Below are positions 10,025 to 64,000 of a stretch of DNA of 64,000 nt, piece after piece. Origin of the DNA: a virus (Duplodnaviria; Caudoviricetes); the IMG/VR virus record IMGVR_UViG_3300009376_001085, positions 35,132-99,131 of that record, one strand, 5' to 3'. Position numbers and translations under genes: made by a program. Position 1 is the stretch's first letter, and every line of letters starts with the position of its first letter. A model generated the notes under the pieces. That model did no database searches. It worked only from the letters and a program-made list of their open reading frames with translations, and was not told the DNA's origin.

Positions 10025-10678
10025 ATGATAACATTTATTCTAGGCTTTTTATGGTGTCAAATTATATCTCATTTTGGTGCGTCTATTCTTCTTCACAGAT
10101 ATTATTGCCATAAACAAATAAAAAGAGTTCCTGTATGGTTTGAAGTTGTCGGACTATTTGGTTTAATGATAGCATATATTAGAACGCCGATTGGTTGGAT
10201 AGCTTCTCATAGGATGCATCATGCAGATTCTGATGGTCTTACAGATCCACATTCTCCCGTACAAAAAGGTTTTTGGAAAGTTCTTTTTACAATATGGCAT
10301 GTTCCGACAATTCCGTCTAAATATGCTAGAGATTTATATCAAAATCCAATACTTGTATTTTATCATAAACATTGGTTTAAGATAATTATAGCAGTATGGA
10401 TTATTTCTTTACTAATTAGTATAGAATTTTTTATTGCATTTGCATTAATGCCTTTTATATTTTCTAAGATGGGGTTTGGTTTATTAAATACTGTCGGTCA
10501 TGGTGTATCTGCACCCAATGACCAATCTAATGGTCCTCAAAATAAACCTTGGCTTAATTTCTTTATTGCTGGCGAAGGCTGGCATAAAACCCATCATGAA
10601 AAGCCTTGGCAACTACGATTACACAAATATGACACAAGCGGATTCATTGCGGAAAAGCTCTTTGCTAGAGCGATCTAA
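10025..10678 (+). CDS. membrane fatty acid desaturase (delta-9-like)
   Basis: His boxes HRYYCH, HRMHH, GEGWHKTHH; DPHSP; hydrophobic segments. Confidence 0.85.
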   Translation: MITFILGFLWCQIISHFGASILLHRYYCHKQIKRVPVWFEVVGLFGLMIAYIRTPIGWIASHRMHHADSDGLTDPHSPVQKGFWKVLFTIWHVPTIPSKYARDLYQNPILVFYHKHWFKIIIAVWIISLLISIEFFIAFALMPFIFSKMGFGLLNTVGHGVSAPNDQSNGPQNKPWLNFFIAGEGWHKTHHEKPWQLRLHKYDTSGFIAEKLFARAI

Positions 10679-11435
10679 AGCGGTTAGAACATTTCCATTA
10701 TTTCCTTTACCTGAAATAGAGTTAGATTTAACAGAAGTAAAGCATTATAATTGGAATAGTACAAATATAAAAGAATGGTTAAGTCCAATTATAGACTTAT
10801 CGGGGTTTGGATATGTTTATCCAATAAATGGTATCACAGAAGGATTAAATTATTGGATGTGGCAAGAAGATAGAATATGGATGCACAATGGAGATTATCA
10901 ATGGATAACACCTTCTGTACCACATCAAAATATGGGCATAACATATTTGACAACACCATCATCTATAGATGGAAACTTTAAAGAAGTACCTAATGTATAT
11001 AATTATGTTCTTGATATAGCATATGTAGGATCAACTAAAATTGAAAAAATTAATATACATAACAATGTACAAAAAGTATTTTTCTCATTGTCAAAATGTT
11101 TTGGTTTACGTAATATAAGAACAGGATGGTATTTTAGTAAAACACCTGATAAAAAATTAGAACTACTAATAGGATCTGCAAAATATTATAATTATTATGC
11201 ACAAGCAGTAGCCGAATATTTTATCAATAAATATGATATAGATATTGTGTATAAAACTCTTAGGCCTATACAAGAAGAGGTATGCCAGCAATTAGATTTA
11301 ATACCGTCTGATGTTGTATGGCTAGCAACAACCAATGACCCTGCATTTGAAAAATTTAGAAGAGGAGATGTTTGTCGTGTCTGCATTGCGGAAGAAATAT
11401 CAGCTGCCTACCATAGCAGAATTACCACAAATTAA
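10662..11435 (+). CDS. PLP-dependent aminotransferase-fold enzyme
   Basis: NGITEG, VLDIAY, FFSLSKCFGL..IRTGW (fold type I PLP lysine motif); likely TTG start at 10662 (track gives 10500). Confidence 0.65.
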   Translation: MLERSKAVRTFPLFPLPEIELDLTEVKHYNWNSTNIKEWLSPIIDLSGFGYVYPINGITEGLNYWMWQEDRIWMHNGDYQWITPSVPHQNMGITYLTTPSSIDGNFKEVPNVYNYVLDIAYVGSTKIEKINIHNNVQKVFFSLSKCFGLRNIRTGWYFSKTPDKKLELLIGSAKYYNYYAQAVAEYFINKYDIDIVYKTLRPIQEEVCQQLDLIPSDVVWLATTNDPAFEKFRRGDVCRVCIAEEISAAYHSRITTN

Positions 11436-12009
11436 AATAAATTTATCAAAATTAAAAGCAGAATATCTTAAATTCTGTTGGAAATTTGTAGATGTAAAAA
11501 CTGCAAATCCTCACCTATGTATGAATCATAAAAAACTTGTCAGCGAAGTTTACGATAATTTTGAACAAATAAATCTTACAGAATTAAATGGCAAGCCTAT
11601 GCCATATACTGATAACATAAAAGAAAGAATAAAACGTAGAGAAGAAACATTATACAATAAAAAGACACAAGATTATATTGGTAGTTATTTTGAAAATATA
11701 GTAGAACAATTTATATCGCCGGCTATGCGAATACGAATTACAAAACTTGCACCTAAAAAAGAAATAACATGGCACATAGATTATGATCCAACATATGCCA
11801 CAAGAATTATTATACCAATATATTCTAATAAAAAAGTCAAAAATTTATTTAAAGTTAGAAAAAATATTGAAGAATATGTTTTGGAAGAAGGTAAAGCATA
11901 TTTTCTAAATGGAGGATTTGCCCATTCAGTTAAAAATGATAGCAACGATTCAAGAATAGCATTAATGTTTAGTTTAGACGGGCAAGATGATTTAATAAAT
12001 GTACCATGA
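11335..12009 (+). CDS. aspartyl/asparaginyl beta-hydroxylase-like Fe(II)/2OG oxygenase
   Basis: RIRITKLAP...WHIDYD...IIIPI...AHSVKN...RIALM; true start probably 11368-11377. Confidence 0.7.
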   Translation: MTLHLKNLEEEMFVVSALRKKYQLPTIAELPQIKINLSKLKAEYLKFCWKFVDVKTANPHLCMNHKKLVSEVYDNFEQINLTELNGKPMPYTDNIKERIKRREETLYNKKTQDYIGSYFENIVEQFISPAMRIRITKLAPKKEITWHIDYDPTYATRIIIPIYSNKKVKNLFKVRKNIEEYVLEEGKAYFLNGGFAHSVKNDSNDSRIALMFSLDGQDDLINVP

Positions 12010-12791
12010 TACCTTACATTTTTGATAATCTACAAGATAAAAATTTAATTAAAAATTTGCAAGAAACAGGTGTTGCAGTTTCGTATGAGCAAGAATTATC
12101 TGATAGTGCATTGGTTTCTTTTTGCAAAAATATTGGTAATTGCGAAACACCCGAAGCATTTATGAATTTAACCGAACACCCTGAAATATTTAAAGTAACA
12201 GGAAAACGCAACAACGACGGATCTAAAATAGGAATGTTTGGCGATACTGAATTAGGATGGCATAGTAATGGTAATAGTAGACGCAACATAGACAAAATTT
12301 GTGTCGCATTATATTGTAAAATAAGCGACGAAAATACTACTACTAGTTTTTGTAACACAAGCGATCCGTTTTACGATTTATCAGACGAATTACAAGAGTA
12401 TTATAAAAGTATAAAAATAAGATTGGCGTTTGTAAATAATACCATTTACCAATTAGATGAGGACGATCCTGAGTATCAATTAATGAGCAGATATCCTGGG
12501 AGCATAAGACCTTTAGTTGATATACACCCTCATACTGGTAAGTATTATTTTTATTTTCCTTATCATTTTATAATAAAAGCATGGCATAATAGTAAAAAAA
12601 TAAATCATAAAAAAATGATAGAAGATTTAAAACCTATCATTTTTAAATCCAAATATCAATATCATCATATTTTTAAACAAGGCGATTTAGTATTAAGCGA
12701 TCAACTTTGTACACTACACCGACGAACGCCAGTGCATGATGTGAATAGATTACTATACAGATTAGCACATGATTATGATAGATGTACCTAA
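12006..12791 (+). CDS. TauD/TfdA-family dioxygenase
   Basis: GWHSNG, TSFCN, RPLV..HP.TG, GDLVLSDQLCTLHRR...RLLYR. Confidence 0.75.
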   Translation: MIPYIFDNLQDKNLIKNLQETGVAVSYEQELSDSALVSFCKNIGNCETPEAFMNLTEHPEIFKVTGKRNNDGSKIGMFGDTELGWHSNGNSRRNIDKICVALYCKISDENTTTSFCNTSDPFYDLSDELQEYYKSIKIRLAFVNNTIYQLDEDDPEYQLMSRYPGSIRPLVDIHPHTGKYYFYFPYHFIIKAWHNSKKINHKKMIEDLKPIIFKSKYQYHHIFKQGDLVLSDQLCTLHRRTPVHDVNRLLYRLAHDYDRCT

Positions 12792-13410
12792 ACCATCTTA
12801 TAAAAATTTTCCTATTCATAATAAAAAATTAGAAGTTCCGTTGTGTACAGAGTATACAATGGAAGACATGGCCTATCTAGATACTCCTCAGGCTAAACCT
12901 ATTTTTGAAAAACAAGCAGACATAATTATAGAAAAACAATCAAAAGGTATTGTAGATGTAGGTTGCCGGCATGGACCTGTAAACAGTATATTACATGAAA
13001 AAGGATACACAGATTATTTGTATATGGGATTTGATACGTCAGTAGAGCCTATAGAAATGGCAAAAAGCCAATGGTATAATTTTTCTAATATCGAATATAG
13101 ACATGCAAATTGGAATAACATAAAAGACATAACTGTAAATTTTAATGTAGACCAAGTTATATGGAGTGGTGTTCTTTTATATAATCCTGATAGTCATAAA
13201 GAATTATTTGATAAATTAACTGTAGAACTATATAATAGTAACAATGCAATTATACAAGAACCTTGTCATAATCAAATACATTGGGATGATAATTTAATAT
13301 TAAAAACTATAGATTTATCATCATATAAAATGTATAGTAAATATAAAGAATATATTATAAAATGCAACATATTTGCTGGCAATAGAATAATAATAGATGT
13401 AGAAATATGA
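12769..13410 (+). CDS. class I SAM-dependent methyltransferase
   Basis: IVDVGCRHG motif I, YMGFDTS motif II. Confidence 0.7.
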   Translation: MIMIDVPKPSYKNFPIHNKKLEVPLCTEYTMEDMAYLDTPQAKPIFEKQADIIIEKQSKGIVDVGCRHGPVNSILHEKGYTDYLYMGFDTSVEPIEMAKSQWYNFSNIEYRHANWNNIKDITVNFNVDQVIWSGVLLYNPDSHKELFDKLTVELYNSNNAIIQEPCHNQIHWDDNLILKTIDLSSYKMYSKYKEYIIKCNIFAGNRIIIDVEI

Positions 13411-13985
13411 ATAAAAAATTAAAAGATTATATTCAATTAACACAATTTATATCTCATACGGAAGCCGATGAAGTTGTTACTACATTAAATGAAGAAACTA
13501 TATGGAAACCTTATCCGTATGAAAAAGAAAGTTATAATATATGTGTTCAAGAATATCCTAAAATACCATACTTGACAACATCATTAAATTTAGACCATAC
13601 AGTTAGTAAATTTCTTGGGTCTAAAATTGACGTAATAATTAATAATTATATTAATAGTTTTTTACATGATGTTTTTTGGTTTAAAAAATGGAGTGATAAA
13701 TCTCATTTTCATTATATAAAATATCCAAAAAATACAGGAATGGAAACACATTGTGATCATGTTCGGCATACGTTTGATGGTAATCGACGGGGAATTCCTA
13801 TTCTTTCTATTGTAGGTACATTTAATGACGAGTACGAAGGTGGTGAATTATTATTTTTACCAGATACAAAAATTAGATTAAATAAAGGAGAAGTTATTAT
13901 TTTCCCTTCGAATTTTTTATACCCTCATAAAGTATTACAAATAACAAAAGGTATTAGATATTCATTTATAGTGTGGGTTTGGTAA
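13407..13985 (+). CDS. 2OG-Fe(II) oxygenase (prolyl-4-hydroxylase-like)
   Basis: HCD...YEGGEL...FPSNFLYPHKV..ITKGIRYS. Confidence 0.85.
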   Translation: MNKKLKDYIQLTQFISHTEADEVVTTLNEETIWKPYPYEKESYNICVQEYPKIPYLTTSLNLDHTVSKFLGSKIDVIINNYINSFLHDVFWFKKWSDKSHFHYIKYPKNTGMETHCDHVRHTFDGNRRGIPILSIVGTFNDEYEGGELLFLPDTKIRLNKGEVIIFPSNFLYPHKVLQITKGIRYSFIVWVW

Positions 13986-13999
13986 AAATAAATAGTTGT

Positions 14000-14767
14000 A
14001 TGAAATATAAAATTGTAAAAACAAAATTAATATATAAAAATAATATTCCTATTAGGAATTATCAAAATTTAGATCCGCCCGGAGACAGAGATACATATGA
14101 TAAATTACAAATTAATGACAAATATTTAGGTTATAAACAAATTATTTATACTCCTATAGATATGCCATTAATTAATGTAGATTTAAAACATATCGAATCA
14201 TTAAGAAATGACCCTAAAATGGAATGGTCTACATTTGGTTGCGATCACGGTTCGGGGAAAGTATTACTCCTCATGGAAAATAATTTTTTGCATCCTTATG
14301 CAAATTCTAATTGGTTTGATTGGGTAGACACGGAAATACCGCATATAAAAAAATTTATCCAACAATTACCATTTAAAACTATTCGACAATGTTCTTTTGT
14401 TTCTCCTCCAGGTAAATCTAATCCTCATTATGACGAACCTTCAAATATGGTCGAGATACTCCGTAAACAATCTCCATCTCAATATAGAATACGATGGAGC
14501 AATATTACTGATCCAAAAAATGAAGTGTTTTATTTGACAAAAGATAGTGGCGAAACTAAAATTTATCCTGAATTGCCAACCGATACTAATACTTTTGTAT
14601 ATGATGGTAGTGTATATGAGCATGGTGCTGATAAAGGATTTCAAATGAGAAATAGATCCCAACTTGTTATTTCAGGATGCTTAGATATTAAAAAGCATCA
14701 TGTTTTACTAGATAAAAGCATTGAAAAATATAAAGAATATTATTTAATAAATAAATATTTTGAATAA
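14000..14767 (+). CDS. putative cupin/Fe(II) oxygenase
   Basis: PHYDE...YEHG...R; likely ATG at 14000 (track gives 13973). Confidence 0.5.
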   Translation: MKYKIVKTKLIYKNNIPIRNYQNLDPPGDRDTYDKLQINDKYLGYKQIIYTPIDMPLINVDLKHIESLRNDPKMEWSTFGCDHGSGKVLLLMENNFLHPYANSNWFDWVDTEIPHIKKFIQQLPFKTIRQCSFVSPPGKSNPHYDEPSNMVEILRKQSPSQYRIRWSNITDPKNEVFYLTKDSGETKIYPELPTDTNTFVYDGSVYEHGADKGFQMRNRSQLVISGCLDIKKHHVLLDKSIEKYKEYYLINKYFE

Positions 14768-14805
14768 ATTGCTTAAATACGTATATAATATATTTAGGAA
14801 AACAA

Positions 14806-15474
14806 ATGTCAACAGAAAACCCAATAGCAAATGAATACATAATTGAACTTCCGCAATTAATTGATTTATTGCCAACAAAAAATGAATTATTAACAATAAG
14901 TGAAACAAAAATAACGAGTAAAAATATTATTCCGGAATATCAGACAGGAGTGATTGCAAAGGATACAAGTGAAAATAAAGACCATGTTGGGTGGGATGCA
15001 ACGACATGGTATTCTATAAATGATAATTCTAAAATCAATGATACTATTTCTAAATTTACTACCACTAATCGTGTAACAAATGTAGATACGAACTCGTGGT
15101 TATGTACAAAAAAAGATGGCTTCTGGATTCGACCACACGTACATGTTCGGCCCGATGATAAAATTGCCGTTTTAATATATTCAATTTCTCAAGAAAGTTT
15201 TGATATAACTTATACAGATCAATGGATCGGTTCTTCGCTTGGAGATCCGATAGATTCGGATCTCTGGGAAAGCGATCCTTCCGATGATTCCGGACCATAT
15301 AATGAGATTTTTTCAAATAGTTGCTCTTGCCCTGTATTGATTAATGGCCAAATTCCGCATTGTTTTAAAGAAACTAGTGCAAGAACAACTTTATTCATAT
15401 CTATGCATTTTGAAAATACAAACTGGGATTGGTTATTAGAAAAACATACAGCCGGCAACTTACTAACTATATGA
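14806..15474 (+). CDS. putative cupin/Fe(II) oxygenase, paralog of the next gene
   Basis: RPHVH...IPHCF...R; AGGA RBS. Confidence 0.5.
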   Translation: MSTENPIANEYIIELPQLIDLLPTKNELLTISETKITSKNIIPEYQTGVIAKDTSENKDHVGWDATTWYSINDNSKINDTISKFTTTNRVTNVDTNSWLCTKKDGFWIRPHVHVRPDDKIAVLIYSISQESFDITYTDQWIGSSLGDPIDSDLWESDPSDDSGPYNEIFSNSCSCPVLINGQIPHCFKETSARTTLFISMHFENTNWDWLLEKHTAGNLLTI

Positions 15475-16094
15475 TAAATGATTATGTTATAGAATTTCCT
15501 AAATTTAATAATTTATTTGATGAGGACCAATTATTAAACTCGTGCCGATTAAATAAAACATTTGCCGAATGGAAAAAAGATCTATCTAGCAACGAAATTG
15601 ACATAGCATCAAACATGGAGCACTTTCTTTCAGAAGACCCAGATGCTCATGCGGTTAAAAATTATGGAGTAACTTCATATGAAGTACCCGAAACACAACC
15701 AGAAGTAAAACATATATTTGAGGCCATTAATCAAGAATTAATGTGGAAAAAACCTATCGGATGGCTTAATTGCAATAATGGCGATCAATGGACTAAACCA
15801 CATATAGATGCAGTTCGTAATGCAGTATTTCAATTTCCAATTTATCCTAAGAATTATACATTAGTTTATTTGGATAAAAATAATTGGAATAGGAATTCTT
15901 ATCCCCAACCTAATCACATATGGGAACACAAAGTTTCTTGTCCGTTAATTGAAAATGTTTCCATTCCTCATTGTGTATACGATAAAGGTATTAAAAGAAT
16001 TCATTTTCAAATATCTTTATATTTTAAAGATTATAGTTGGGAGAAAATAAAAGAATATGTAAAAAATGGAGAACTTTTTAGTAAAAAAATATAG
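15471..16094 (+). CDS. putative cupin/Fe(II) oxygenase, paralog of the previous gene
   Basis: KPHID...IPHCV...RIHFQI; ATGA overlap start at 15471. Confidence 0.5.
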   Translation: MINDYVIEFPKFNNLFDEDQLLNSCRLNKTFAEWKKDLSSNEIDIASNMEHFLSEDPDAHAVKNYGVTSYEVPETQPEVKHIFEAINQELMWKKPIGWLNCNNGDQWTKPHIDAVRNAVFQFPIYPKNYTLVYLDKNNWNRNSYPQPNHIWEHKVSCPLIENVSIPHCVYDKGIKRIHFQISLYFKDYSWEKIKEYVKNGELFSKKI

Positions 16095-16659
16095 CGATAA
16101 TCCTGAACAATATCGTTCTATTATAGAAATATTTAGAAAAAAAACATTTCAAGAAGGCAACGAAAGTCTAAGTTACAAAAAATATAATCCTGATAATCCT
16201 GATATAGAGACATGGATGGTGTTTAATGAAACCCAAGATCTTATATCTATATCTGCAGGCGAAAAATCTCATTACACAAATGATCCAGACATTGCTTTAA
16301 GAATTTGCAGATACCATATATTAAAACCATTTCGCAGAACACATTGTGGTTTAATGATGGCTGAATATCAAATACAATGGGCTAGAGAACATAATTATCA
16401 AATTTTATATGTTACTCATGATATTAAAAATAGAGCGTTGAATGATTTATATCAACGAAAACGTAAAATGCCATTACCATCATTTAAAAAATGGACAGAA
16501 GGTGAGTGGTATAAAAAATTACAACTAGAAAAAAATTTTTTATTTAAAACAGGAAATATGTTACAATATGTTTATACTATTAGATTGTTTGATCCTAACT
16601 TTATATGGAATCCAAAATCAGATTACATAGTAGAAAAAAAACATAACGGAGATATTTAA
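16066..16659 (+). CDS. GNAT-like acetyltransferase
   Basis: RYHILKPFRRTHCGLMM...WARE...ILYV resembles GNAT motif A/B. Confidence 0.45.
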   Translation: MENFLVKKYSDNPEQYRSIIEIFRKKTFQEGNESLSYKKYNPDNPDIETWMVFNETQDLISISAGEKSHYTNDPDIALRICRYHILKPFRRTHCGLMMAEYQIQWAREHNYQILYVTHDIKNRALNDLYQRKRKMPLPSFKKWTEGEWYKKLQLEKNFLFKTGNMLQYVYTIRLFDPNFIWNPKSDYIVEKKHNGDI

Positions 16660-17582
16660 TTAATTGTTTCTTTTCTCATTTGCATGTCTGTAAGACAAAT
16701 ACAAGCATGTTTGTTACATATAATAGGATCATTAGGAAGATTAATTATTCGTTTTTTAATATTTCCTAATACCCACTCGCTATCCAGACCGCAAGCAGAT
16801 CGTGTTATGGAATTATCTTCTCTAATACGGCACCCGTCTATTCCTGCATAACATTTCCAACCAAAAAAATTATCTTTTCCGGTTAATTTAGCTTCTGCTG
16901 GATCATAATACTCATTATTTAAGTATAACAAATTAGTAATTAAAGACCAATCTACATTTGTTTTCTTATTAAATAGCTTATTCCATTTTTTATGAGATAG
17001 AAATTGTTTTTGTTCATCAGTATAAGGTACATAGGCACCACCCTTATCTTCAACTAAAACTCTCATCACATACGAATTTGGATAATTTTTTAATTTGTCG
17101 TGTATGTAATAACAATTATCTAAAGACTGTTCCCAATGTGTTGGGTCTAATAAAACAGATATTACAATGGGTTTATGTTGATCGAAGATTTTACATATAT
17201 TCACTATATGATCAGATTTAGCGAATTTTGTATGCACAGAAAGTATTAAGCCTGACAAATATTTTTGATTTTCTTTCCACCAACGTAAAGTTCTAGAACC
17301 ATTTGTTATAAAATGAGTATAAACATTTCTATTATATAATTCTTTCAATAAATTGGATATTTTGGGATTTAATGTAGGTTCTCCGCCAGTAAACCTAGCA
17401 GTAAGTTGCTTATATGGATACTTTTTTTTAATTTCATCAATACACCATAAAATATCATTATTATCTAATCTAGTATTTCCTGCCCATACTAACGGTGAAC
17501 AATAAGAACACCGATAATTACAAATTGTGTTTAATACTATGTCAGTTATAAAAATATTATTATTTTCAAGAGTTAATTTCAT
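16656..17582 (-). CDS. radical SAM protein with C-terminal Cys cluster
   Basis: CNYRCSYC, FTGGEPT, TNGSR, C-terminal CYAG...C...C...CIC; likely start MKLTLE at 17582. Confidence 0.85.
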   Translation of the reverse strand: MKLTLENNNIFITDIVLNTICNYRCSYCSPLVWAGNTRLDNNDILWCIDEIKKKYPYKQLTARFTGGEPTLNPKISNLLKELYNRNVYTHFITNGSRTLRWWKENQKYLSGLILSVHTKFAKSDHIVNICKIFDQHKPIVISVLLDPTHWEQSLDNCYYIHDKLKNYPNSYVMRVLVEDKGGAYVPYTDEQKQFLSHKKWNKLFNKKTNVDWSLITNLLYLNNEYYDPAEAKLTGKDNFFGWKCYAGIDGCRIREDNSITRSACGLDSEWVLGNIKKRIINLPNDPIICNKHACICLTDMQMRKETIN

Positions 17583-18225
17583 CTGAAAAACCCCATATTC
17601 GTTCCTGACACCACCAACATATACCACAATGTCCTAATCCCGGATCTTTATTACTTTGTTTTTCCCATTCACATGATCTAGTATGTACAAATAATTTATC
17701 TATTAAATTATACTCTCTATATATTTGAGCTATTTTCTTTTTATCTATATTACACCATGGCGTATAAATTGTATTATCATATAATAGAACTTTGCGTTCG
17801 ACTGTAGGATCTCTGTTTACTTCTGAAGTTTTTTCTATAAATGTATCAGTTATATATTTTGGCGGATTTGCAGTAATGCCTGTATATATAACATTTACTA
17901 ATTTATTTTTTATATAATAATTTGTTTTATCAAATATATTACTTAATGTTTGGTGATCACAAAATGTACTATGATGTTCTATATTTATATTTCCTGTTAA
18001 CTCAATACATTTTTGAATAACATTATTAGTAATTGTTATATTTTTAAATTGTCTTGCTTTATTTCCTGACGAAAAAATATAAATCTTGTTTTTAGAATAT
18101 TTCATTAAAAAATATAAAAGCAAAGAACTATCTGCCCCGCCGCTACAACTTATACCGATAGGGCCTTCATATATTTTTAAATTGACCCCAGATAAATCTA
18201 ATTCTTTAAGTTCGACTAAATTCAT
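17566..18225 (-). CDS. QueC-like PP-loop ATPase
   Basis: SGGADS PP-loop and TRSC...HCGICWWCQER zinc motif. Confidence 0.7.
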   Translation of the reverse strand: MNLVELKELDLSGVNLKIYEGPIGISCSGGADSSLLLYFLMKYSKNKIYIFSSGNKARQFKNITITNNVIQKCIELTGNINIEHHSTFCDHQTLSNIFDKTNYYIKNKLVNVIYTGITANPPKYITDTFIEKTSEVNRDPTVERKVLLYDNTIYTPWCNIDKKKIAQIYREYNLIDKLFVHTRSCEWEKQSNKDPGLGHCGICWWCQERIWGFSDEINS

Positions 18226-51797: not shown

Positions 51798-51803
51798 TAT
51801 TAG

Positions 51804-55209: not shown

Positions 55210-55211
55210 TT

Positions 55212-56108: not shown

Positions 56109-57402
56109 TTATATTTTTAGTATTATTGAGGACTTCTCTGTGTATTTCTGTTTTAAAAAAAGAAGAATTCGTTTCTAAAAATGAAACCAAAGGAAGTGCT
56201 TTATTATATTTAATCAAATCTTTATCGTCACGATAGAAATTAAAAAACGGATTAAAAGTATTATGACTAAGATAATTATCTATAGAATGTAAAATTCTAT
56301 ATGGACTCATATTTGTTGATTGTTTAACATCTTTAGGATAAAAATATATGTGTTTTGTAAAATTATTATGTATAATTTTTTCTAAAGTAGAATCCGCATT
56401 TAAACCATTATGATAAAATATTTCAGGAAAATCGTAATCAATAATAGAATTTTTAAAACCTTTAGCAATATGTATATTGGCATTAAGTCCTTCGGCTAAT
56501 AAAGTACCAACGTAAACATCTGTACATTGGCTCATAACTATTAACCTTTTTGTAGAAGGAACTTTTTCAGTTATAAAATTTTTTAAATATTCTATACTAT
56601 TTTGTATGTTATTTGTTAAAGGACCAATACCATAATAATGCGAATCATATAAATCCTGAGGTGTTTTAGTTAGAATTATTATATTATATTCATTAAAATA
56701 TTCATTAAAAAATTTAGTTTGAATAAATTTAATATATCCTAATTTATTAAGGTGCTCTCCAAAGGTGGAAATATATAACAATGTTTTATTTTTATTCTTA
56801 TTATATACTGCTAATCTATCATGAAACCAACAAAAATTAGTTGCTTTTATTTTTTTACTTAAATTTAAATATTTCTGTATTATCGTATTATCATAAAATT
56901 TATTTTCTCCTATTAATTTATCTAATATAATTGTATCAAGATTATTTTTTGTTTTTTTATAAAATATTATTCCAATAAATGGCTGAATTCGATTATTCAA
57001 AGATGATGTTAATATAACATTTAATTTTTCAGGAGAAAAACAATTTAAATAATTATCGTTTCTGTTTAAGAAAAGAGTTATATCATTTACATTTAACTTA
57101 ACAAAATTATTAGCTACAGGTAATAAAAAAATATTTGATTGTTTTGGTATATTGAATAAGTCTATTAAATTATGTTTTCCTGGTGTTATAATAGTAATAA
57201 TTTTAAAATCATAATTTTTCTTAAAAATTTCATCAGGAAAATAAAAATCTATCCATTTTTTTAAACCGTCGGGGACAATATCATTATTAATATCAATTAT
57301 ATTATTTGACGAGTAAAAATTAATATTATGTAATTCATCTCGCATCTTATGTAGTTCGTGAGCTACATGACTAAATCTAGTGTTAAATTTCCAAGTATAC
57401 AT
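56092..57402 (-). CDS. hypothetical protein
   Basis: 436-aa, very AT-rich ORF overlapping both neighbours. Confidence 0.6.
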   Translation of the reverse strand: MYTWKFNTRFSHVAHELHKMRDELHNINFYSSNNIIDINNDIVPDGLKKWIDFYFPDEIFKKNYDFKIITIITPGKHNLIDLFNIPKQSNIFLLPVANNFVKLNVNDITLFLNRNDNYLNCFSPEKLNVILTSSLNNRIQPFIGIIFYKKTKNNLDTIILDKLIGENKFYDNTIIQKYLNLSKKIKATNFCWFHDRLAVYNKNKNKTLLYISTFGEHLNKLGYIKFIQTKFFNEYFNEYNIIILTKTPQDLYDSHYYGIGPLTNNIQNSIEYLKNFITEKVPSTKRLIVMSQCTDVYVGTLLAEGLNANIHIAKGFKNSIIDYDFPEIFYHNGLNADSTLEKIIHNNFTKHIYFYPKDVKQSTNMSPYRILHSIDNYLSHNTFNPFFNFYRDDKDLIKYNKALPLVSFLETNSSFFKTEIHREVLNNTKNINEYLV

Positions 57403-58127
57403 CTATTATCTTTTGCATTTTTACTTATTTTTTTCCAAAGTTCATCATTAAGAGTGTTATTTACTAAATCTAATAAACGGGCCCATTCTTGTTTATTCGG
57501 ATATAAAATTAAATTTCTTGCATTAAAAAGAAAAATTTTATCAAATTTTTCTTTTGGATTATATCTCCAATTTGTAATATACATATTTCGTACAAAATCT
57601 ATACCATGTGTTTGTAATTTATCTATTAAATACCTATCAGGATTACCATGCGTATTTTGTAAATTTTTATGACACATTAAATTAAATTGTTCGTGTTCAT
57701 ATCCTTTTGGCCAATAAAAATGTAAAATAGTAAAATTATTTAAAAATTCGAAAAATATTTCTCTACGGCGAATTTCAGAATGTAAATGACAAAGAGCAAA
57801 ATAATAATTATCAATTGGGTCAACATTTTTTAACCATACATTAAATAAATAATTGCTTAGTTTATATAATTCTTTTAGATCTAATTTGTGTATATCTCTA
57901 TTAATATGTAATTTTTTAGACAATGTTTTATCTATTTCCATTGTCCGAAACCTACTTTTAAAAATATCTCTAAACCACCATTTATTAGTTAATTCGTTCC
58001 GCCAATTTTTATAATAATCTTTATAAACACAATCATCAGCTATTATTGTACCTATAAAATCTCCACCTGCTCCAGCAAATGCCGATATAAAATATATTTT
58101 ATCTTTTAATTCAAGAACGTCTATCAT
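57363..58127 (-). CDS. hypothetical protein (N-terminal FAGAGGDF loop)
   Basis: Motif shared with 19991-20890; likely start MIDVLE at 58127. Confidence 0.6.
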   Translation of the reverse strand: MIDVLELKDKIYFISAFAGAGGDFIGTIIADDCVYKDYYKNWRNELTNKWWFRDIFKSRFRTMEIDKTLSKKLHINRDIHKLDLKELYKLSNYLFNVWLKNVDPIDNYYFALCHLHSEIRRREIFFEFLNNFTILHFYWPKGYEHEQFNLMCHKNLQNTHGNPDRYLIDKLQTHGIDFVRNMYITNWRYNPKEKFDKIFLFNARNLILYPNKQEWARLLDLVNNTLNDELWKKISKNAKDNRCILGNLTLDLVM

Positions 58128-59346
58128 TTTTTTCATGGGTCCAAATGTCATCTATTTGATTATTCTCGCCACATGTGGTAGCACAATATCCTAATTTACC
58201 ACAACGAATATTATCCTTATTCCAGCCATCTTTAAATATATTAAAATAACCACTATTATACACTTCTTCTAATGTATTTTTGTATAAAGAAATATTATCT
58301 TCGCCAAATTTCTTAACTACTTGTTGTATCTGAACTAATTCAAACCAATTAGATGGTACATAATATACTGTACCTATCCAACAACATGGCATAACTAGTC
58401 CTTGGGCAGTAACATAAATCTCATGTTTATCTTCAGGATTTTCGGGTTTCCCTAATACTTTGCAATTTATAGTTGAATTATTAACTCTACGTTCATAATC
58501 AATCTCGGCATGAGCAGTTTTAGGATCAAAGTCTAAAATAGAATCCATAAATATTTTGTCCCATTTATATCTACTTGCTAAAGGTATAGATTGATGAATA
58601 TTAACATTACCTATTTCAGTTCTTGATCCTAAATTTCTATTGTTTTCATCTGTCGGCGCTTCTAATAAATATTCCATCTCTCCATTCCTATTATAAACAG
58701 GGTGGGGCACAGGATTTCCGATTTTATCTAAATTTTGAAACCCTAATGCTTTTTTTGCAATAAATTTATCAAATCCCATTTCTTCACTTAATTGACGAGC
58801 TTCGTCAATTTGATGTTCATTATGTTTAAAAATAAGAAATTCCCATTCTGCTTTGCCACCGCCATCTATAAATGCTTGAGAATTTTCCATTACTTTTTTC
58901 CAACTATTATTTCTTCTATATAAATGATTAGTATCTTCCAAACCATCTATACTAAAAATTAATTGTCCTCTATCTACATTTTTGGGGAAATATTTTCCTA
59001 ACTCTTTATAATAATCAGGAGTCCGAACTCCTCCATTTGTATTCATATGGATAAATGAATCGTCGTGTTCTGTTCTTATATATTCTATAATTTTTAACAT
59101 ATCTTTAGCAACATTTGGCTCGCCAGTACCTCCACATAAAACCCAACTTTTTAATTGCTTAATATAAGGCGAAAACCAAGATTTAAAATCTTGAAAAGAT
59201 ATTTCAGTTAGTTCTAATGTTTTTCTTACAGATGCGCCATTAATACTTCGAGGGCACATAGGGCACAATAAATTACATTTACTTGTAGGTTCTAAATGTA
59301 TTTGATAAAGAGACTCTAACTCAAAATCCGGGTAATATTTCTGCAT
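58111..59346 (-). CDS. radical SAM/SPASM protein, paralog of 35008-36069
   Basis: CNLLCPMC, FSIDGLEDTNHLYR (identical in 35008), FKHNEHQ, INCK...MPCCW...CATTC. Confidence 0.9.
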   Translation of the reverse strand: MQKYYPDFELESLYQIHLEPTSKCNLLCPMCPRSINGASVRKTLELTEISFQDFKSWFSPYIKQLKSWVLCGGTGEPNVAKDMLKIIEYIRTEHDDSFIHMNTNGGVRTPDYYKELGKYFPKNVDRGQLIFSIDGLEDTNHLYRRNNSWKKVMENSQAFIDGGGKAEWEFLIFKHNEHQIDEARQLSEEMGFDKFIAKKALGFQNLDKIGNPVPHPVYNRNGEMEYLLEAPTDENNRNLGSRTEIGNVNIHQSIPLASRYKWDKIFMDSILDFDPKTAHAEIDYERRVNNSTINCKVLGKPENPEDKHEIYVTAQGLVMPCCWIGTVYYVPSNWFELVQIQQVVKKFGEDNISLYKNTLEEVYNSGYFNIFKDGWNKDNIRCGKLGYCATTCGENNQIDDIWTHEKNDRRS

Positions 59347-60532
59347 AATCTTTAAATAATTTAGTAAAATCTTGTTTTCGATATTTGTCGTGTTCTTTTA
59401 TTTCATTAACCCATCTATTATAATCATCAACATTATATTCTTTTGAATGCATAAAATTTATTATATTATCAATTCCTCTATATGCATGCCAATCGGTAGA
59501 TGCATCTTTTAAACCATCTCGTACTTTTTCTTCTATTTTTTGCTTAACTTCAGTAGGAATATTTGTTATATTTTGATAACTAGGCCAATGAACTAAATTT
59601 AAATAAACACCTATATTTTGTTTTTCGAAAAAATTTACAACTTCGTCAATATAATAAACATTAAAATTACTAATAGTTAAACAAACACCTGCACTTACTG
59701 TTTCAGGTTGCTCATCTCGAAATGCCATGTACTTTTTTATATTACTAAGCACTCGTTTCCATTTTGCAGGATACCGCATAAATTCAAATCTATCTTCTAT
59801 TCCATCTATTGAAAACTGTATATCAACCCAGCCAAATTCTTTAAGCCAGTTTAAATATTTTGTTCTGAAAACAGTTCCGTTAGTATTATAATGAAGTTTT
59901 TGATTTTTAGAATAACCTAACTCAACACTTTTTTTAATAAGATTCCATTGCTCTTGTATAATCATAGGTTCTCCACCATAAAAATCAAAATGATTTATAT
60001 TAGGTAACCAATTATCTAATGTTTTCCAAAGGGTATTTTCAGTTGAAAAACATTTTGATATTTGATCCATATGTGTGTTGATTTGTTTTGCTTGATCTTC
60101 ATTAGCAAAAAATAACTCTTCTTCTAACCATCCAGTGCTACTATGTGTACCGCATGTACGACATGCAATATTACATTTATTTCCTAGTTTTAAATCTAAT
60201 ATTTGAGGCTGTGACAAATCATTATCTAATAATTCTTCATGTTCTTTGTTATCCCTTATTCGCTTTGAATTTCTTTCTGCTTTTTCTTCTACCCAACACA
60301 AGTTACAATTAGGATGATATTCTCCATTATTTAATGCATCTCTAACTTCATTTATTTGATCACAATTCCAAAACTCTTCAAGAGTATAGTCATTTAAAAA
60401 TGTATTATTACCATTTATCTTTAATCTATCACTACTCATACAACATATTTTTACCTCACCATTGGCCTCGACTGATAAACTGGTAAAAGGTAAAACACAA
60501 AATGTTTTACTGTTTTTGTTTGCACAACTCAT
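59321..60532 (-). CDS. radical SAM protein with N-terminal twitch/SPASM-like Cys cluster
   Basis: CVLPF...CC...CNLC, CNIACRTC, YGGEP, TNGT, SIDG. Confidence 0.9.
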   Translation of the reverse strand: MSCANKNSKTFCVLPFTSLSVEANGEVKICCMSSDRLKINGNNTFLNDYTLEEFWNCDQINEVRDALNNGEYHPNCNLCWVEEKAERNSKRIRDNKEHEELLDNDLSQPQILDLKLGNKCNIACRTCGTHSSTGWLEEELFFANEDQAKQINTHMDQISKCFSTENTLWKTLDNWLPNINHFDFYGGEPMIIQEQWNLIKKSVELGYSKNQKLHYNTNGTVFRTKYLNWLKEFGWVDIQFSIDGIEDRFEFMRYPAKWKRVLSNIKKYMAFRDEQPETVSAGVCLTISNFNVYYIDEVVNFFEKQNIGVYLNLVHWPSYQNITNIPTEVKQKIEEKVRDGLKDASTDWHAYRGIDNIINFMHSKEYNVDDYNRWVNEIKEHDKYRKQDFTKLFKDYAEILPGF

Positions 60533-61895
60533 AAAAATCCTTATATTCTGGAAATGTTTTTAAAAAATTTTTATTTCTTCGTTTGTCGTGTTCTATAACA
60601 AATTTATAAAAATCTTTTTGTCCATTAGTAACTTGTTCTGGTGTAAATGGATTTTTTATCATAACGTCTGTAACCCTTTTCATTTTTTCATATTCTACTT
60701 CACTAAAACCATGCCAGCCTATTTTATCCATCCTATTTTTTCTCATAAATTTGAGTATATCTTTTTGATCATGTAAATATGATTCAGGCAAAGTATTAAG
60801 TAAAAACCAAGGGGGTTCTTTAATATATGGAGTATCAAATGCAATACGTTGTTCTTTTTCGCTGTTAAATTCAATTTCTTTAAATTCAGTTCGCCATTCC
60901 ATTATTTTTTCTAATAACAATTTAAAACTATTTCTTACACATAAATTATGATAGGTACACATTAAATGAAGTTTACTATTTTTAACTGAATTTAAATATA
61001 ACCTAATATTAGTTTCCCATAGCTCGCAATCAAGCCCGCTTCGTATATACTCTGCCTTTTCTCCCCAAGATTCGACACTAGTAAATAATTCAAATGCTTT
61101 AATTTTATTTTCAGCAAGTAATTTGTTTATTTTTGTAGTCAGTCGTTTTATAAACTTAGTTGCCATTCCCATATTACTATTAACATGTATAGTTAAATGG
61201 GGCGAAGGATCTTTATCTAACATATCAAGCATCTTATATGTATTTAGATTAATTAAACATTCGCCTCCTGTAATACGCAAAACTTGTAAATCATTTTTTA
61301 AGTCGGGCCACCATTTCCAAAATGCATCTATATATGGATTATAATCGTCTGGCTTATAAAATTGATCTTGTAAAAATTCTATACCATATTGATTGTACGA
61401 AACATCATAATTACCGTATCTTTCAATTTCTTCCATCCAACTAGAACTTGCTTGAGGACAACAATAAATACACTTAAAATTACATTTATTGCCAAAACTT
61501 AATTCTATATGCCTAGGATTCCAGTCAGCATTCCATGATAAATTTTTAATAGTATTATAATCTTTTAATGCATACTCATTTGAACTATGAATAAATCTAT
61601 CAGATATATGGTCACCTTCTAAATCTTCTATATTCCAACAATAATAACATTCTTCAGGACGTCCGCCTTCTAGCATTGTTTTACGTTGTTGTTTTTTCCA
61701 TTCTGTATTATGTAATGCCGAAGGATTATTCTCTATTTCTTTTAATCCTATTCGTCTAGGTTGAGGATGATAGCAACTATGATTATCGCCCATATGAAGA
61801 TATAAAGTTTCTGTTTGCCATTTCATTAGGCAAAATCCTTTACCCACTTCATTTAATTTATTTTTTGTAGAAATTATATTTTCAAGATAACTCAT
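60507..61895 (-). CDS. radical SAM protein with N-terminal CxxKW/HSCYHP/CxxCW cluster
   Basis: CLMKW, HSCYHP, CYYCW, CNFKCIYC, TGGEC. Confidence 0.9.
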   Translation of the reverse strand: MSYLENIISTKNKLNEVGKGFCLMKWQTETLYLHMGDNHSCYHPQPRRIGLKEIENNPSALHNTEWKKQQRKTMLEGGRPEECYYCWNIEDLEGDHISDRFIHSSNEYALKDYNTIKNLSWNADWNPRHIELSFGNKCNFKCIYCCPQASSSWMEEIERYGNYDVSYNQYGIEFLQDQFYKPDDYNPYIDAFWKWWPDLKNDLQVLRITGGECLINLNTYKMLDMLDKDPSPHLTIHVNSNMGMATKFIKRLTTKINKLLAENKIKAFELFTSVESWGEKAEYIRSGLDCELWETNIRLYLNSVKNSKLHLMCTYHNLCVRNSFKLLLEKIMEWRTEFKEIEFNSEKEQRIAFDTPYIKEPPWFLLNTLPESYLHDQKDILKFMRKNRMDKIGWHGFSEVEYEKMKRVTDVMIKNPFTPEQVTNGQKDFYKFVIEHDKRRNKNFLKTFPEYKDFYELCKQKQ

Positions 61896-63588
61896 ATTGC
61901 GTTTTACAGTCTATATAAAATTTTGATAGTTCAGGAAAAACTTTCAAAAAATTAAGATTTTTTCTTCTATCATATTCTTTAAAAAACAAATAAAAATTAA
62001 TCATTTTATCTTTAGGGTTAGTTGTTCCTTGTTTTGCCCATTCTAAATTTCTTTTCATTTTGTTTATTTCAAATAATTTAAAACCTGGAGAGATTGTATT
62101 TTGAATTTCTGTATTTTCAGCATTGTCAGATAGGCTTATATTATTCTCCATAAACAAAATTGCATCTTCTATATAATTTAGATATACTGGTTGATTAATT
62201 AATTGAATATTCATCCAATCAGGATATTCTAAGTAAGGAATGTCAAACCATACTAATTGTCTATCTTGTTTTATGTTTGACGTTCGAAGGTCTAATATGT
62301 ATTGTAAGAAATTTTTTAATTTAGGTAAACTTAATATATTAAATGTATTTATGAATGATATATTAACACCTTCTGTTTGTGCTAATACAGTATCTACATT
62401 TCTTTTTAAGTTATTATAATTTAATCCGTATCTAATATATTCTGCCTGTTCTTCTACAGTATCTAGGCTCACATATAATGTAAACTGTTTTCCTTGATTT
62501 AATGCTAATTTAGAATTTGACGGATAAAATTTTCCATCAATTTCTGTATAATTTTCTATATAAAAATATGCTCCGCTATCAGGATCAAACCCTCGCTCAT
62601 TAAAAGTATCGTGTATATTAGTTTCAGATATTCTTGGATATTTTTTAAGTATATTATCATCGCATGATTCTTTTACTATAAATCTTTTTCTTTCGTATGG
62701 ATTAGGATGGTCGATATTAGGCACATAAAATTTAACATCTATACATTTATTTTTTACCTGTTTTTTTGTTATTTTATTAACACTATCTATAAATTTATAT
62801 AACATTTTTTGATCAGGTGGACATAAATTACTGGTTATTGATACTTCTAACAACGGATGAGGATGTTTATTAATGTAATCTAACATTTTAAATGTATTTG
62901 TATCAATAAGAGGTTCGCCGCCAGTCATTCTAAATGTACGCAAATCTTTATAAATTGTAGGTAACCATTTCCAAAAAGCATCAACATAAGGATTTTCTTC
63001 ATTAGACATTTTTAACGGCATATCTAAATATTGTATATCATTATGATTAGAATCTATTCCTGACATTTTATATGGACCAAACTCCTTTATTTCTTTTTCC
63101 CATGTTGTACTCAAATGCGGTGAACAATACATGCATTTAAAATTACATGCTTGATTAAAATTTACTTCGACATTAATTGGATTAACATTATAGTCATAAG
63201 AAGAGGTAGAAATTTTTTTTAATTTATCTTCTGCCCAATCCCAGTCCATATCAAAATATTCACAAGCTCTATAATGCCTATCACTTGTATGATCTAAATC
63301 TTCAGCAGACCAACAAAATTGACACCCTTTTGGTTTGGTTCCTTCAAGCATTAATTTACGTTCGTTCTTTTTTTCTATTGTATTATGTAATGCGCCTGGG
63401 TTGTCTTTTAATTCTTCTAATGGAATTTTATGAGCAGGAGGATGATAACAACTATGTGTTTTTCCTTGAGGCAAATGTAAACTAACTTGCAACCATTTAG
63501 CCATACAAAACGACTTGCTGATCGAGTTAAGTTTTTCTTTCATGACCTCGGATTTATTATAATATTCTCCTCTTTTTAATTTTTGCAT
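61882..63588 (-). CDS. radical SAM protein, paralog of 60507-61895 with an internal insertion
   Basis: CMAKW, HSCYHP, CQFCW, CNFKCMYC, TGGEP. Confidence 0.9.
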   Translation of the reverse strand: MQKLKRGEYYNKSEVMKEKLNSISKSFCMAKWLQVSLHLPQGKTHSCYHPPAHKIPLEELKDNPGALHNTIEKKNERKLMLEGTKPKGCQFCWSAEDLDHTSDRHYRACEYFDMDWDWAEDKLKKISTSSYDYNVNPINVEVNFNQACNFKCMYCSPHLSTTWEKEIKEFGPYKMSGIDSNHNDIQYLDMPLKMSNEENPYVDAFWKWLPTIYKDLRTFRMTGGEPLIDTNTFKMLDYINKHPHPLLEVSITSNLCPPDQKMLYKFIDSVNKITKKQVKNKCIDVKFYVPNIDHPNPYERKRFIVKESCDDNILKKYPRISETNIHDTFNERGFDPDSGAYFYIENYTEIDGKFYPSNSKLALNQGKQFTLYVSLDTVEEQAEYIRYGLNYNNLKRNVDTVLAQTEGVNISFINTFNILSLPKLKNFLQYILDLRTSNIKQDRQLVWFDIPYLEYPDWMNIQLINQPVYLNYIEDAILFMENNISLSDNAENTEIQNTISPGFKLFEINKMKRNLEWAKQGTTNPKDKMINFYLFFKEYDRRKNLNFLKVFPELSKFYIDCKTQYELS

Positions 63589-63608
63589 TTGGTATTGTTA
63601 ATAATAGG

Positions 63609-64000
63609 TCACACTATTTTTTGTGCAACGATAACTCTTTCTTTGTCATTAAACCCCATTAGAATGGTGTCACTTTCTGTTAAATTATTTTCTTTACATA
63701 CATCAGAATATATATCAGCAAATTTATCCCAATTATAATCTACATTATATTCTGTAATGAGAGCATTGGCAATACTTATATTGATTCTGCTAAACATATT
63801 GCATTCATTAAAAAAATCTATACCATCATCGATATTTTCTTTTTGCATTCGCACTCCAATTCGTAAATATTCCGCACCATAACAAAATTTAGATAAACTA
63901 AATGCTAATGTTTCTATACAAGTATATTTTTTTAAATCTATGTTTATATTTTTAGAAACAGGATAATGACAAAAATCTAATAATACTGGTACTTGCAATT
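63609..64000 (-). CDS. PLP-dependent aminotransferase-fold enzyme (5' end outside the window)
   Basis: VLLDFCH, AFSLSKF...LRIGVR; resembles 10662-11435 and the fused domain in 24586-27027. Confidence 0.65.
   Translation of the reverse strand, partial: LQVPVLLDFCHYPVSKNINIDLKKYTCIETLAFSLSKFCYGAEYLRIGVRMQKENIDDGIDFFNECNMFSRINISIANALITEYNVDYNWDKFADIYSDVCKENNLTESDTILMGFNDKERVIVAQKIV

Follow-up and report, generated by a model that had tools for sequence, protein, structure and literature searches.

The window analyzed in this study is a 64,000-nucleotide stretch of viral DNA, namely the last 64 kb (bases 35,132-99,131) of a single linear IMG/VR virus contig of 99,131 bp (IMGVR_UViG_3300009376_001085), and it carries an island rich in radical S-adenosylmethionine (SAM) enzymes (positions below are those of the window unless stated otherwise). 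A regular-expression search over the set of open reading frames (ORFs) identified 17 CxxxCxxC motifs in 16 ORFs, all located on the minus strand between positions 16,656 and 63,588, with one ORF (27017-31270; 1417 amino acids (aa)) holding two of the motifs. When the entire record of 99,131 bp was searched in all six frames with PF04055, 17 matches at E ≤ 0.01 were obtained, all inside the island; 12 of them exceed the family cut-off of 29.5 bits, and the five below it all lie in genes that pass the NF033640 model described below. These counts reproduce the original prediction, made by a model from the sequence alone, of an island of more than 50 kb extending from 10,025 to the contig end with 16 radical SAM genes and 17 motifs. 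Since the island reaches the contig end, its length of more than 54 kb is a lower bound. Its main part is an array of 46 consecutive minus-strand genes (16656-64000), including all 16 radical SAM genes and ending with the contig. The packing is operon-like, with 44 overlapping junctions and only three gaps longer than 30 bp among the 57 genes examined, and the overlapping ends of the 46 genes, all on one strand, suggest that they are transcribed together. The observation of a radical SAM-rich island is confirmed, and its earlier interpretation as a tailoring pathway is partly supported.

All-against-all blastp comparison divided the 16 radical SAM genes into groups, the largest of which comprises nine genes with ten domains sharing 22-42% mutual identity; the others are a radical SAM/SPASM trio (one member split), a pair weakly resembling viperin and MoaA, a short SPASM enzyme, and an enzyme with weak resemblance to B12 domains. 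The ten domains of the largest group belong to the NCBIfam family NF033640, 'twitch domain-containing radical SAM protein' (N_Twi_rSAM, hereafter N_Twi), and cover the whole model. Against a cut-off of 170 bits, nine domains score 249.8-420.6 bits as single matches, and the tenth reaches 198.3 bits in its first piece and 285.3 bits summed over two pieces split by an insertion. Among 14 control cellular genomes, none contained an NF033640 match above cut-off. Like the NF033640 model, the island domains keep four N-terminal cysteines, the CxxxCxxC motif, and a GGE motif; C10, C28, C91, C94, and both motifs are invariant in all ten, and the domains therefore look like active enzymes with a putative second cluster site. 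In four genes, the Pfam SPASM-like segment lies N-terminal to the radical SAM core, which reverses the usual order.

The most conserved gene of the island is an N_Twi gene (31264-32664, minus strand; NF033640, 420.6 bits), which we used as the anchor for comparison with related loci. Adjoining it, the 1417-aa ORF 27017-31270 (minus strand) consists of an N-terminal part of about 520 aa, which matched no family and whose ESM Atlas neighbors are viral and unnamed, followed by two tandem N_Twi domains (323.5 and 256.8 bits). Two adjacent minus-strand genes (21927-23216 and 23213-24589) are mutually closest paralogues according to blastp, NF033640, and the tree described below. A further N_Twi gene (45080-46231, minus strand) scores 252.9 bits with NF033640 and 63 bits with Radical_SAM and shows the N-terminal SPASM match, and three adjacent minus-strand genes (59321-60532, 60507-61895, and 61882-63588) were assigned by Pfam, blastp, and NF033640. 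The last of these carries an insertion of about 100 residues inside the radical SAM domain, which is the reason why NF033640 matches it in two pieces; a relative at 152088-153791 in a related record (G002) is matched in the same split way. The ninth gene, a fusion, is described separately.

Outside the window, the family is large and, where checked, mostly viral. The anchor gene has 3982 homologues, all metagenomic, the best 120 of which share 63-87% identity with it, and the ESM Atlas clusters nearest to it (one member queried) are 97-100% viral and mostly assigned to Uroviricota. Only four of 50,697 deposited phage records contain a match, at 23-28% identity. In Ralstonia phage RsoM2USA, the neighbors of a distant N_Twi homologue are all annotated as hypothetical proteins. 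No match was found in 185,579 cellular species genomes by a low-sensitivity scan, which uses few near-exact peptide words and hence says little about distant cellular N_Twi members. A profile built from the ten domains, searched against 1.84 billion representatives of clusters formed at 50% identity, retrieved, at E ≤ 1e-30, 7,522 proteins, of which many have two or three domains. In a profile search of the PDB, the radical SAM core alone was matched (SkfB, GDGT-MAS, CteB, BlsE, MoaA, and viperins), SkfB being the nearest solved core (E 1.1e-10); nothing in the PDB matched the N_Twi N-terminal domain, and BtrN was not among the 15 sequences found at E ≤ 0.01.

In four large relatives of the contig, NF033640 gave about 17, 14, 11, and 2 matches above cut-off. 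A quick maximum-likelihood tree of 37 domains, supported only by Shimodaira-Hasegawa-like approximate likelihood ratio tests (SH-aLRT), paired eight of the ten window domains with a copy from one of two of these relatives, G001 or G004, six of them with SH-aLRT ≥ 95. The paralogues are thus old and separately retained and do not reflect a recent burst, as expected if they carry out distinct steps or have distinct specificities. In G004, one N_Twi match (223219-224286) contains a single in-frame TGA, which could mark a broken copy, a sequencing error, or recoding.

The ninth N_Twi gene (24586-27027, minus strand) encodes an 813-aa protein in which an N_Twi domain (aa 1-480; NF033640, 320.6 bits) is fused to a probable fold-type I pyridoxal phosphate (PLP) aminotransferase domain (aa 480-813). 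The 334 C-terminal residues (DNA 24589-25590) match PF00155 with 17.6 bits (E 0.0024; cut-off 19.7) and the valine-pyruvate transaminase model NF006967 with 17.1 bits (E 0.0018, also sub-threshold), and as a profile searched against the PDB they match 1-aminocyclopropane-1-carboxylate synthase with E 0.09. Fusions of this type were found in 31 cluster representatives (642-845 aa), a precomputed Radical_SAM match being present in 29 of these, and an alignment of 20 fusion proteins showed both orders, with the PLP-like domain either before or after N_Twi. In all 20 proteins S688, K691, R699, and G701 (S-L-T-K...R.G) are invariant, a pattern that we take to resemble the PLP site of class I aminotransferases. 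The N_Twi enzyme probably passes its product to the transaminase, so that a hydroxyl group would be converted to a ketone and then to an amino group. A gene cut by the contig end (63609-63998, minus strand) is a paralogue of this PLP-like domain (blastp, 8.7e-6). Three PLP-fold domains had originally been proposed; one is weak but concordant, the truncated paralogue may be added to it, and a third was not found.

To assess which parts of the island are conserved, we kept 80 of 119 IMG/VR stretches that match the anchor gene (62-88% identity; contigs of up to 257 kb) and counted orthologues within 10 kb of the anchor, which is itself present in 80 of 80 loci by construction. A radical SAM/SPASM gene with the ordinary domain order (35008-36069, minus strand; Pfam) has an orthologue in 73 of the 80 loci, a glycosyltransferase-like gene (37916-38596, minus strand) in 65, and a methyltransferase-fold gene (37177-37938, minus strand) in 44 at ≥ 40% identity and in 68 if any match is counted. 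A fourth gene, encoding a further radical SAM enzyme (18844-19998, minus strand; weakly viperin/MoaA/ScmF-like in Pfam and NCBIfam) was found in 40 loci at 57-71% identity, and its counterpart stands side by side with those of the other three genes in G001. The carbamoyltransferase described below has an orthologue in 16 loci, and most other island genes, particularly those at 46,209-58,151, are without counterpart in either G001 or G004. The island as such is shared: all 25 larger related records contain 6-24 Radical_SAM matches each, and it is a clade-wide trait, large but not singular. The densest of the 25 records is G024 (76 kb, 4% complete according to CheckV), with 24 matches.

Two members of the conserved core were characterized by AlphaFold2 (AF2) models built from orthologue alignments. 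The model of 37916-38596 (mean confidence score, pLDDT, 90.4) indicates a GT-A glycosyltransferase-like protein: Foldseek found WrtF, RmlT, GtrB, SunS, and polypeptide GalNAc-transferases (ppGalNAc-T) with E of about 1e-4, the probabilities being 0.89-1.00 for WrtF, RmlT, GtrB, ArnC, and ppGalNAc-T, with ThuS also among the matches, and in a viral structure library the model matched two uncultured-phage proteins with a template modeling (TM) score of 0.8, followed by many viral GT-A enzymes. In a sequence alignment of 27 orthologues, D57-x-D59 is invariant, a candidate for the DxD motif with which GT-A enzymes bind metal and nucleotide-sugar. The original prediction named three glycosyltransferase-like genes, of which this one is upheld by its fold and the other two are not. 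The model of 37177-37938 (pLDDT 84.6) has the fold of a class I SAM-dependent methyltransferase, with O- and N-methyltransferases matched at E of about 1e-6. Profile searches of the PDB with both alignments gave no matches. In at least four loci, the GT-A-like and methyltransferase parts are joined in one ORF of 956-1081 aa, and glycosyltransferase-like ORFs reach 1127 aa. A core that is conserved, syntenic, and sometimes fused argues for functional coupling of at least four to five genes.

The viral origin of the window is well supported. Upstream of the island, the contig encodes an exonuclease and a family-B, T4-type DNA polymerase (PHROG 262, E 4e-191) for which the search of the 50,697 deposited phage records ranked highest Agrobacterium phage Atu_ph07 (47%), Sinorhizobium phage Phosso, Vibrio phage 2.275.O, Cronobacter phage GAP32, and Pectobacterium phage CBB, with identities of 43-47% and genomes of 349-490 kb. 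A whole genome of roughly 350 kb fits the CheckV completeness of 28% estimated for the 99,131-bp record, whose sequence contains neither terminal repeats nor N letters; no tRNA genes were found within the 64-kb window. The replication module is syntenic with that of the 256-kb relative G004 (polymerase 58% identity, about 20 more genes in kept order), including a MoxR-type AAA ATPase (3068-4168, plus strand; 58% identity) and a DUF2201 metallopeptidase/VWA protein (5216-6583, plus strand; 46% identity), and the island adjoins this replication/nucleotide module and ThyX. On the 99,131-bp contig itself, neither a capsid nor a terminase gene was matched; in four large relatives, G004 among them, the contigs that carry the radical SAM islands also encode a T4-type gp23 capsid protein (E 1e-80 to 1e-103) and a large terminase. 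The window is best explained as part of the genome of a marine jumbo phage that is uncultured and belongs to the T4 superfamily.

Marine metagenome runs of other studies hold near-identical DNA, and contigs from three of them are 90-99% alike over the flanks of the stretch at 10,006-16,008, which they leave nearly uncovered, although contig cover cannot show absence. A contig of 25,342 nt spans positions 6,649-20,000, including the junction between replication module and island; its run possibly represents the source sample. Two contigs, each from a run of a different study, match the window from 16,122 rightward, and their preceding 2,237 and 856 letters could not be placed on it at 90% likeness, so that the sequence to the left, a plus-strand block rich in oxygenases, may differ between strains. 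G+C makes up 33-39% of the replication module (1-10,000) and, for the most part, 22-33% of the island, with a local rise to 35-38% at 40,000-44,000, over the symporter and carbamoyltransferase genes. Upstream of the window (14154-15388 of the contig), two neighboring ORFs (200 and 209 aa), to which no function is assigned, are paralogues with 31% identity (E 1e-33).

The remaining radical SAM genes, all on the minus strand, belong to smaller groups, and SPASM matches were found in nine ORFs in total (Pfam). The core gene 35008-36069 has a paralogue at 58111-59346 (Pfam, blastp), and both resemble the two halves of a split enzyme (33301-35008), one ORF carrying only the radical SAM core (34412-35008) and the other only SPASM (33301-33612), with an ORF of no family (33634-34485) between them. 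A short radical SAM/SPASM enzyme is encoded at 50032-50745 (Pfam), and 16656-17627 is a distant paralogue of 18844-19998 (blastp). For two radical SAM genes the best, though weak, NCBIfam match is prokaryotic viperin. The gene 53758-55209 (Pfam Radical_SAM 61 bits) shows weak likeness to B12-binding proteins (17.6 bits, below cut-off) and weak matches to PhpK and lipid-B12 models, far below their cut-offs. The PhpK-like match, together with an earlier report (PMC8942020), led us to consider phosphonate biosynthesis; this was rejected, with phosphoenolpyruvate mutase found in 0 of 25 records.

Pfam assigned a family at E ≤ 0.01 to 36 of the 56 island ORFs, and no nonribosomal peptide synthetase, polyketide synthase, or terpene synthase family is among them, as had been stated originally. 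Next to the core lies a putative activation/import segment (38706-42804, minus strand; Pfam, PHROG, PDB), which includes two ORFs of no family. It encodes a cytidylyltransferase-like protein (38706-39083; Pfam, marginal), an SSF symporter (40358-41833; Pfam, 84 bits), whose nearest solved relative is the DUR3 urea symporter (1.4e-17) with choline transporters also close, a methyltransferase-like protein recognized from a motif read by eye (41835-42371), and an adenosine phosphosulfate (APS)-kinase-like P-loop kinase (42358-42804; 23.0 bits against a cut-off of 21.1, PHROG 'kinase' 2.6e-24). It is followed by an O-carbamoyltransferase of the NodU/TobZ type (42812-44314, minus strand) with Carbam_trans_N and Carbam_trans_C at 144.8 and 176.6 bits, both above cut-off, and with NovN (4.6e-60), GdmN (2e-51), and TobZ (1.4e-34) as the nearest solved structures. 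The transporter, the APS-kinase-like gene, and the carbamoyltransferase had all been predicted and are borne out here. The DUR3-like symporter is located two genes from the O-carbamoyltransferase, with the cytidylyltransferase-like and APS-kinase-like genes close by; the kinase and cytidylyltransferase pair presumably recalls the donor pathway for O-methyl phosphoramidate in Campylobacter.

Oxygenases are spread over both strands. Asp/Asn-hydroxylase-type cupins were found at 11335-12009 (plus strand) and 18222-18854 (minus strand) by Pfam, with an Asp/Asn beta-hydroxylase-type cupin at 32645-33301 (minus strand; PF05118, 46.4 bits), one of the three being below cut-off; TauD-family Fe(II)/2-oxoglutarate (2OG) dioxygenases are encoded at 12006-12791 (plus strand) and 51804-52673 (minus strand), and a 2OG-FeII_Oxy_3 protein at 13407-13985 (plus strand). 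Six of the roughly 11 oxygenases first proposed are thereby supported by Pfam and the rest are not. Both proposed PP-loop enzymes were recovered, one above the QueC cut-off (17566-18225, minus strand) and a weaker PP-loop-like one below it (55212-56108, minus strand; 18.3 bits). The three methyltransferases proposed differ in their support: the fold of 37177-37938, a below-cut-off Pfam match at 12769-13410 (plus strand), and the motif read by eye in 41835-42371. The GNAT-like gene (16066-16659, plus strand) scores below cut-off, and the SGNH-like genes were confirmed by no tool, a weak DUF6473 match being all that was seen. Three ORFs (8202-9122, 20905-21930, and 33634-34485) are mutually homologous (blastp). 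A strong FA_desaturase match (10025-10678, plus strand) opens the plus-strand block (10025-16659), in which four of ten genes have no Pfam family; orthologues of this block occur in only 4-8 of the 80 loci. The block may be a separate accessory module.

We interpret the array tentatively, and with a probability that we place somewhat short of even, as a phage-encoded system that would synthesize a heavily edited and unusual molecule, either a sugar or a small sugar-like compound, and transfer it. Gene content, family memberships, viral context, conservation pattern, and domain fusions are observed; from them we infer which class of substrate is used, in which order the steps follow, what chemistry each radical SAM enzyme performs, and what the acceptor is. 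The pathway would start from a host nucleotide-sugar, or from a precursor that the SSF symporter takes up and that the kinase and the cytidylyltransferase-like protein activate. The old, diverged radical SAM paralogues, including the ten N_Twi domains, would edit it at unactivated positions, and the radical SAM-PLP fusion would oxidize a C-OH group to C=O for transamination to an amino group. Further groups could be introduced by the Fe(II)/2OG and cupin oxygenases, the PP-loop enzymes acting as amidoligases, the methyltransferases, and the O-carbamoyltransferase. The GT-A enzyme and its partner methyltransferase might then attach the product to an acceptor and cap it, virion proteins or the host envelope being favored over DNA, and, with a conserved core inside a variable shell, each phage lineage would make a product version of its own.

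This reading fits best because of the GT-A/methyltransferase pair, the radical SAM-PLP fusion, the type of the carbamoyltransferase, the grouping of a transporter with a kinase and a cytidylyltransferase-like protein, the nucleoside diphosphate (NDP)-sugar enzymes of the relatives, and the pattern of core and variable shell, which recalls surface-glycan loci. Among the 25 related records, an NAD-dependent epimerase/dehydratase is above cut-off in 12 and a DegT-like protein in seven; both lie inside the radical SAM-rich stretch in G002, G004, and G005, and the epimerase alone does so in G017. The tailoring of a sugar or small molecule, as first suggested, is therefore the best-supported reading, although it is reached only by inference.

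A number of observations weigh against the sugar reading. No family could be assigned by Pfam to 20 of the 56 island ORFs; NCBIfam, run on 20 ORFs or domains, added two trivial weak matches only, PHROGs, run on ten ORFs, gave 'kinase' and one family of unknown function only, and single-sequence PDB searches with four of the no-family ORFs returned nothing usable. The PLP assignment consists of sub-threshold matches only. The glycosyltransferase-like protein 37916-38596 has no Pfam, PHROG, or PDB sequence match, its TM scores to solved GT-A enzymes are only about 0.3-0.4, its fused relatives show only sub-threshold GT2, Glyco_tranf_2_3, and DUF6492 matches in Pfam, and Pfam GT2 is above cut-off in only one of the 25 records. 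DegT was not matched in the window itself, and the match to the short-chain dehydrogenase/reductase that had been predicted is weak and below cut-off. A sugar-1-phosphate nucleotidyltransferase was found in 0 of the 25 records, and host nucleotide-sugars would therefore have to be the input. We know of no characterized or structurally solved member of NF033640, and our literature search found no paper that characterizes the family or describes an island of this type. Finally, only about five genes are conserved across the relatives, and the N_Twi genes of G001 are scattered over about seven places in its genome, which together argue against one linear pathway of 56 genes; the proposal that all of them serve a single pathway is not supported.

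Peptide or protein modification is a serious rival, although we regard it as unlikely: the island's radical SAM/SPASM and N_Twi enzymes, its hydroxylases (of Asp/Asn type, and a prolyl-hydroxylase-like 2OG oxygenase), its glycosyltransferase, and its methyltransferases would mature a phage protein, such as a virion or tail fiber protein, or a ribosome-made peptide, in the manner of peptide pathways that use several radical SAM enzymes. SPASM/twitch radical SAM enzymes and Asp/Asn hydroxylases are familiar above all as modifiers of peptides and proteins, and the island has SPASM matches in nine ORFs, three Asp_Arg_Hydrox matches, and one 2OG-FeII_Oxy_3 match. SkfB is the nearest solved core, peptide maturases (PapB, mycofactocin, SkfB, and WgkB among them) make up most of the secondary NCBIfam matches that the radical SAM genes give, and the GT-A model resembles in fold, among others, the peptide glycosyltransferases SunS and ThuS as well as ppGalNAc-transferases. 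The scores against the peptide-maturase models are, however, all far below their cut-offs, and Pfam found no recognition element of RiPPs (peptides that are made on the ribosome and modified after translation), leader protease, or exporter family in the 56 ORFs. With only three gaps longer than 30 bp, the island also leaves no room for a precursor-peptide gene, which might be located elsewhere in the genome. The PLP fusion, the NovN/TobZ-type carbamoyltransferase, and the NDP-sugar enzymes of the relatives fit small-molecule chemistry better.

According to a second alternative, which we likewise hold to be improbable, the island is not one pathway but a hypervariable accessory region in which independent enzymes (auxiliary metabolic, counter-defense, or nucleotide-modifying) have gathered, each with a host metabolite or signal of its own as target. 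Such a region would account for the genes at 46,209-58,151 that mostly lack counterparts in two large relatives, the rarity of the plus-strand block among the loci, the seven or so separate places of the G001 N_Twi genes, and the spread of radical SAM counts among the 25 records. The weak viperin matches of two genes point the same way, as does the FA_desaturase, which could work alone; desaturases act as auxiliary metabolic genes in phages. Loose assemblage is harder to reconcile with 46 same-strand genes with overlapping ends and with a core that is conserved, syntenic, and sometimes fused, and the radical SAM-PLP and radical SAM-radical SAM fusions couple steps.

DNA hypermodification, in which a complex adduct of the thymidine, hydroxymethylcytosine, or 7-deazaguanine type would be built on a phage base to escape restriction, is the least probable of the three. 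PLP enzymes and kinases take part in thymidine hypermodification, and other phage DNA modifications draw on glycosyltransferases, carbamoyl groups, and PP-loop enzymes of the QueC type. The island encodes a P-loop kinase and adjoins the replication/nucleotide module and ThyX, and two papers on thymidine hypermodification (PMC5889632, PMC8989533) mention radical SAM enzymes. Against these points, a thymidylate-synthase-fold enzyme, the hydroxymethylase type that could install a primary handle on dU or dC, is above cut-off in only one of five records, the QueC matches are partial or below cut-off, and TET/JBP was found in 0 of five records, a weak negative because the controls were silent too. 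The tRNA-guanine transglycosylase (TGT)/DpdA search was likewise negative in all five, with 14 of 14 controls positive, and 7-deazaguanine modification was rejected accordingly, while for DNA-modification enzymes in general absence is no proof in records that are 28-72% complete. Taken as a whole, we consider a DNA adduct very unlikely.

Several known systems resemble the island in part. To our knowledge, giant-virus glycan pathways contain no radical SAM enzymes, as opposed to the 16 found here. Protein A064R of chlorovirus PBCV-1, which combines a GT-A domain, a further glycosyltransferase, and a class I methyltransferase, constructs the terminal part of the capsid N-glycan and O-methylates it (PMC9614988). 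The island similarly couples, and in relatives fuses, a GT-A-like protein to a class I SAM methyltransferase among tailoring genes that vary between lineages; its host, unlike that of PBCV-1, is a bacterium, and the likeness to A064R is one of architecture, with no sequence homology shown. Phage-borne glycosyltransferase clusters also act in virion glycosylation, and a glycosyltransferase of mycobacteriophage Che8 is among the GT-A fold matches (rank 13); unlike the island, these clusters and the lipopolysaccharide-gene clusters of cyanophages consist of a few ordinary glycosyltransferases and sugar enzymes.

The parallel with aminoglycoside biosynthesis drawn in the original prediction is best regarded as an analogy of logic and not as membership. 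BtrN with its aminotransferase is the textbook case of hydroxyl-to-amine conversion, and in the island a radical SAM enzyme with an auxiliary, cysteine-rich cluster domain is fused to a PLP aminotransferase-like domain, with a carbamoyltransferase homologous to TobZ, NovN, and GdmN. Homology to BtrN is not supported: it is absent from the PDB matches at E ≤ 0.01, and the cysteine-rich domain is N-terminal in the island, whereas the twitch domain of BtrN is C-terminal. Unlike aminoglycoside clusters, the island has no 2-deoxy-scyllo-inosose synthase or other scaffold gene.

Some of biology's most difficult reactions are catalyzed by radical SAM enzymes, of which phages are known to encode one or two. 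The sole mention of a comparable load in a phage that our literature search returned is in the report of Nishimura et al. (2017, mSphere, PMC5332604), where the 12 radical SAM genes of a marine, T4-like viral genome are listed in a discussion of Fe-S cluster supply that proposes no function for them. That genome resembles ours in being marine, uncultured, and T4-like with many radical SAM genes. A link to Fe-S assembly prompted by this paper was not upheld, since PF01521 is present in only two of the 25 records. The term radical SAM occurs in neither of two jumbo-phage papers (PMC9123017, PMC12619734; 0 occurrences each). The island belongs to an already known kind, that of virus-encoded tailoring or glycan loci; what is new is an unprecedented radical SAM load drawn from an uncharacterized and, where checked, largely viral family, which occurs here in ten copies within 54 kb, as a tandem fusion, and fused to a PLP-like domain.

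We further propose, as a doubtful but consequential possibility, that N_Twi is a large, mostly virus-borne family of sugar-editing enzymes, of which marine jumbo phages would use 10-17 diverged copies per genome, alongside oxygenases, as a combinatorial kit for a lineage-specific, hypervariable glycan on the virion or on the surface of the infected cell. Editing would include oxidation, amination through the fused PLP domains, and epimerization or deoxygenation at unactivated carbons; if true, this would be a viral counterpart of O-antigen diversity, with chemistry that no glycosylation pathway is known to use. A clade of marine jumbo phages devotes at least 50 kb to radical SAM enzymes, and the four-gene core and the radical SAM-PLP fusion offer concrete starting points in the laboratory. 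Identification of the product would open a new enzyme family, test whether phages make exotic glycans or adducts, and explain a large iron-dependent viral investment in iron-poor seawater.

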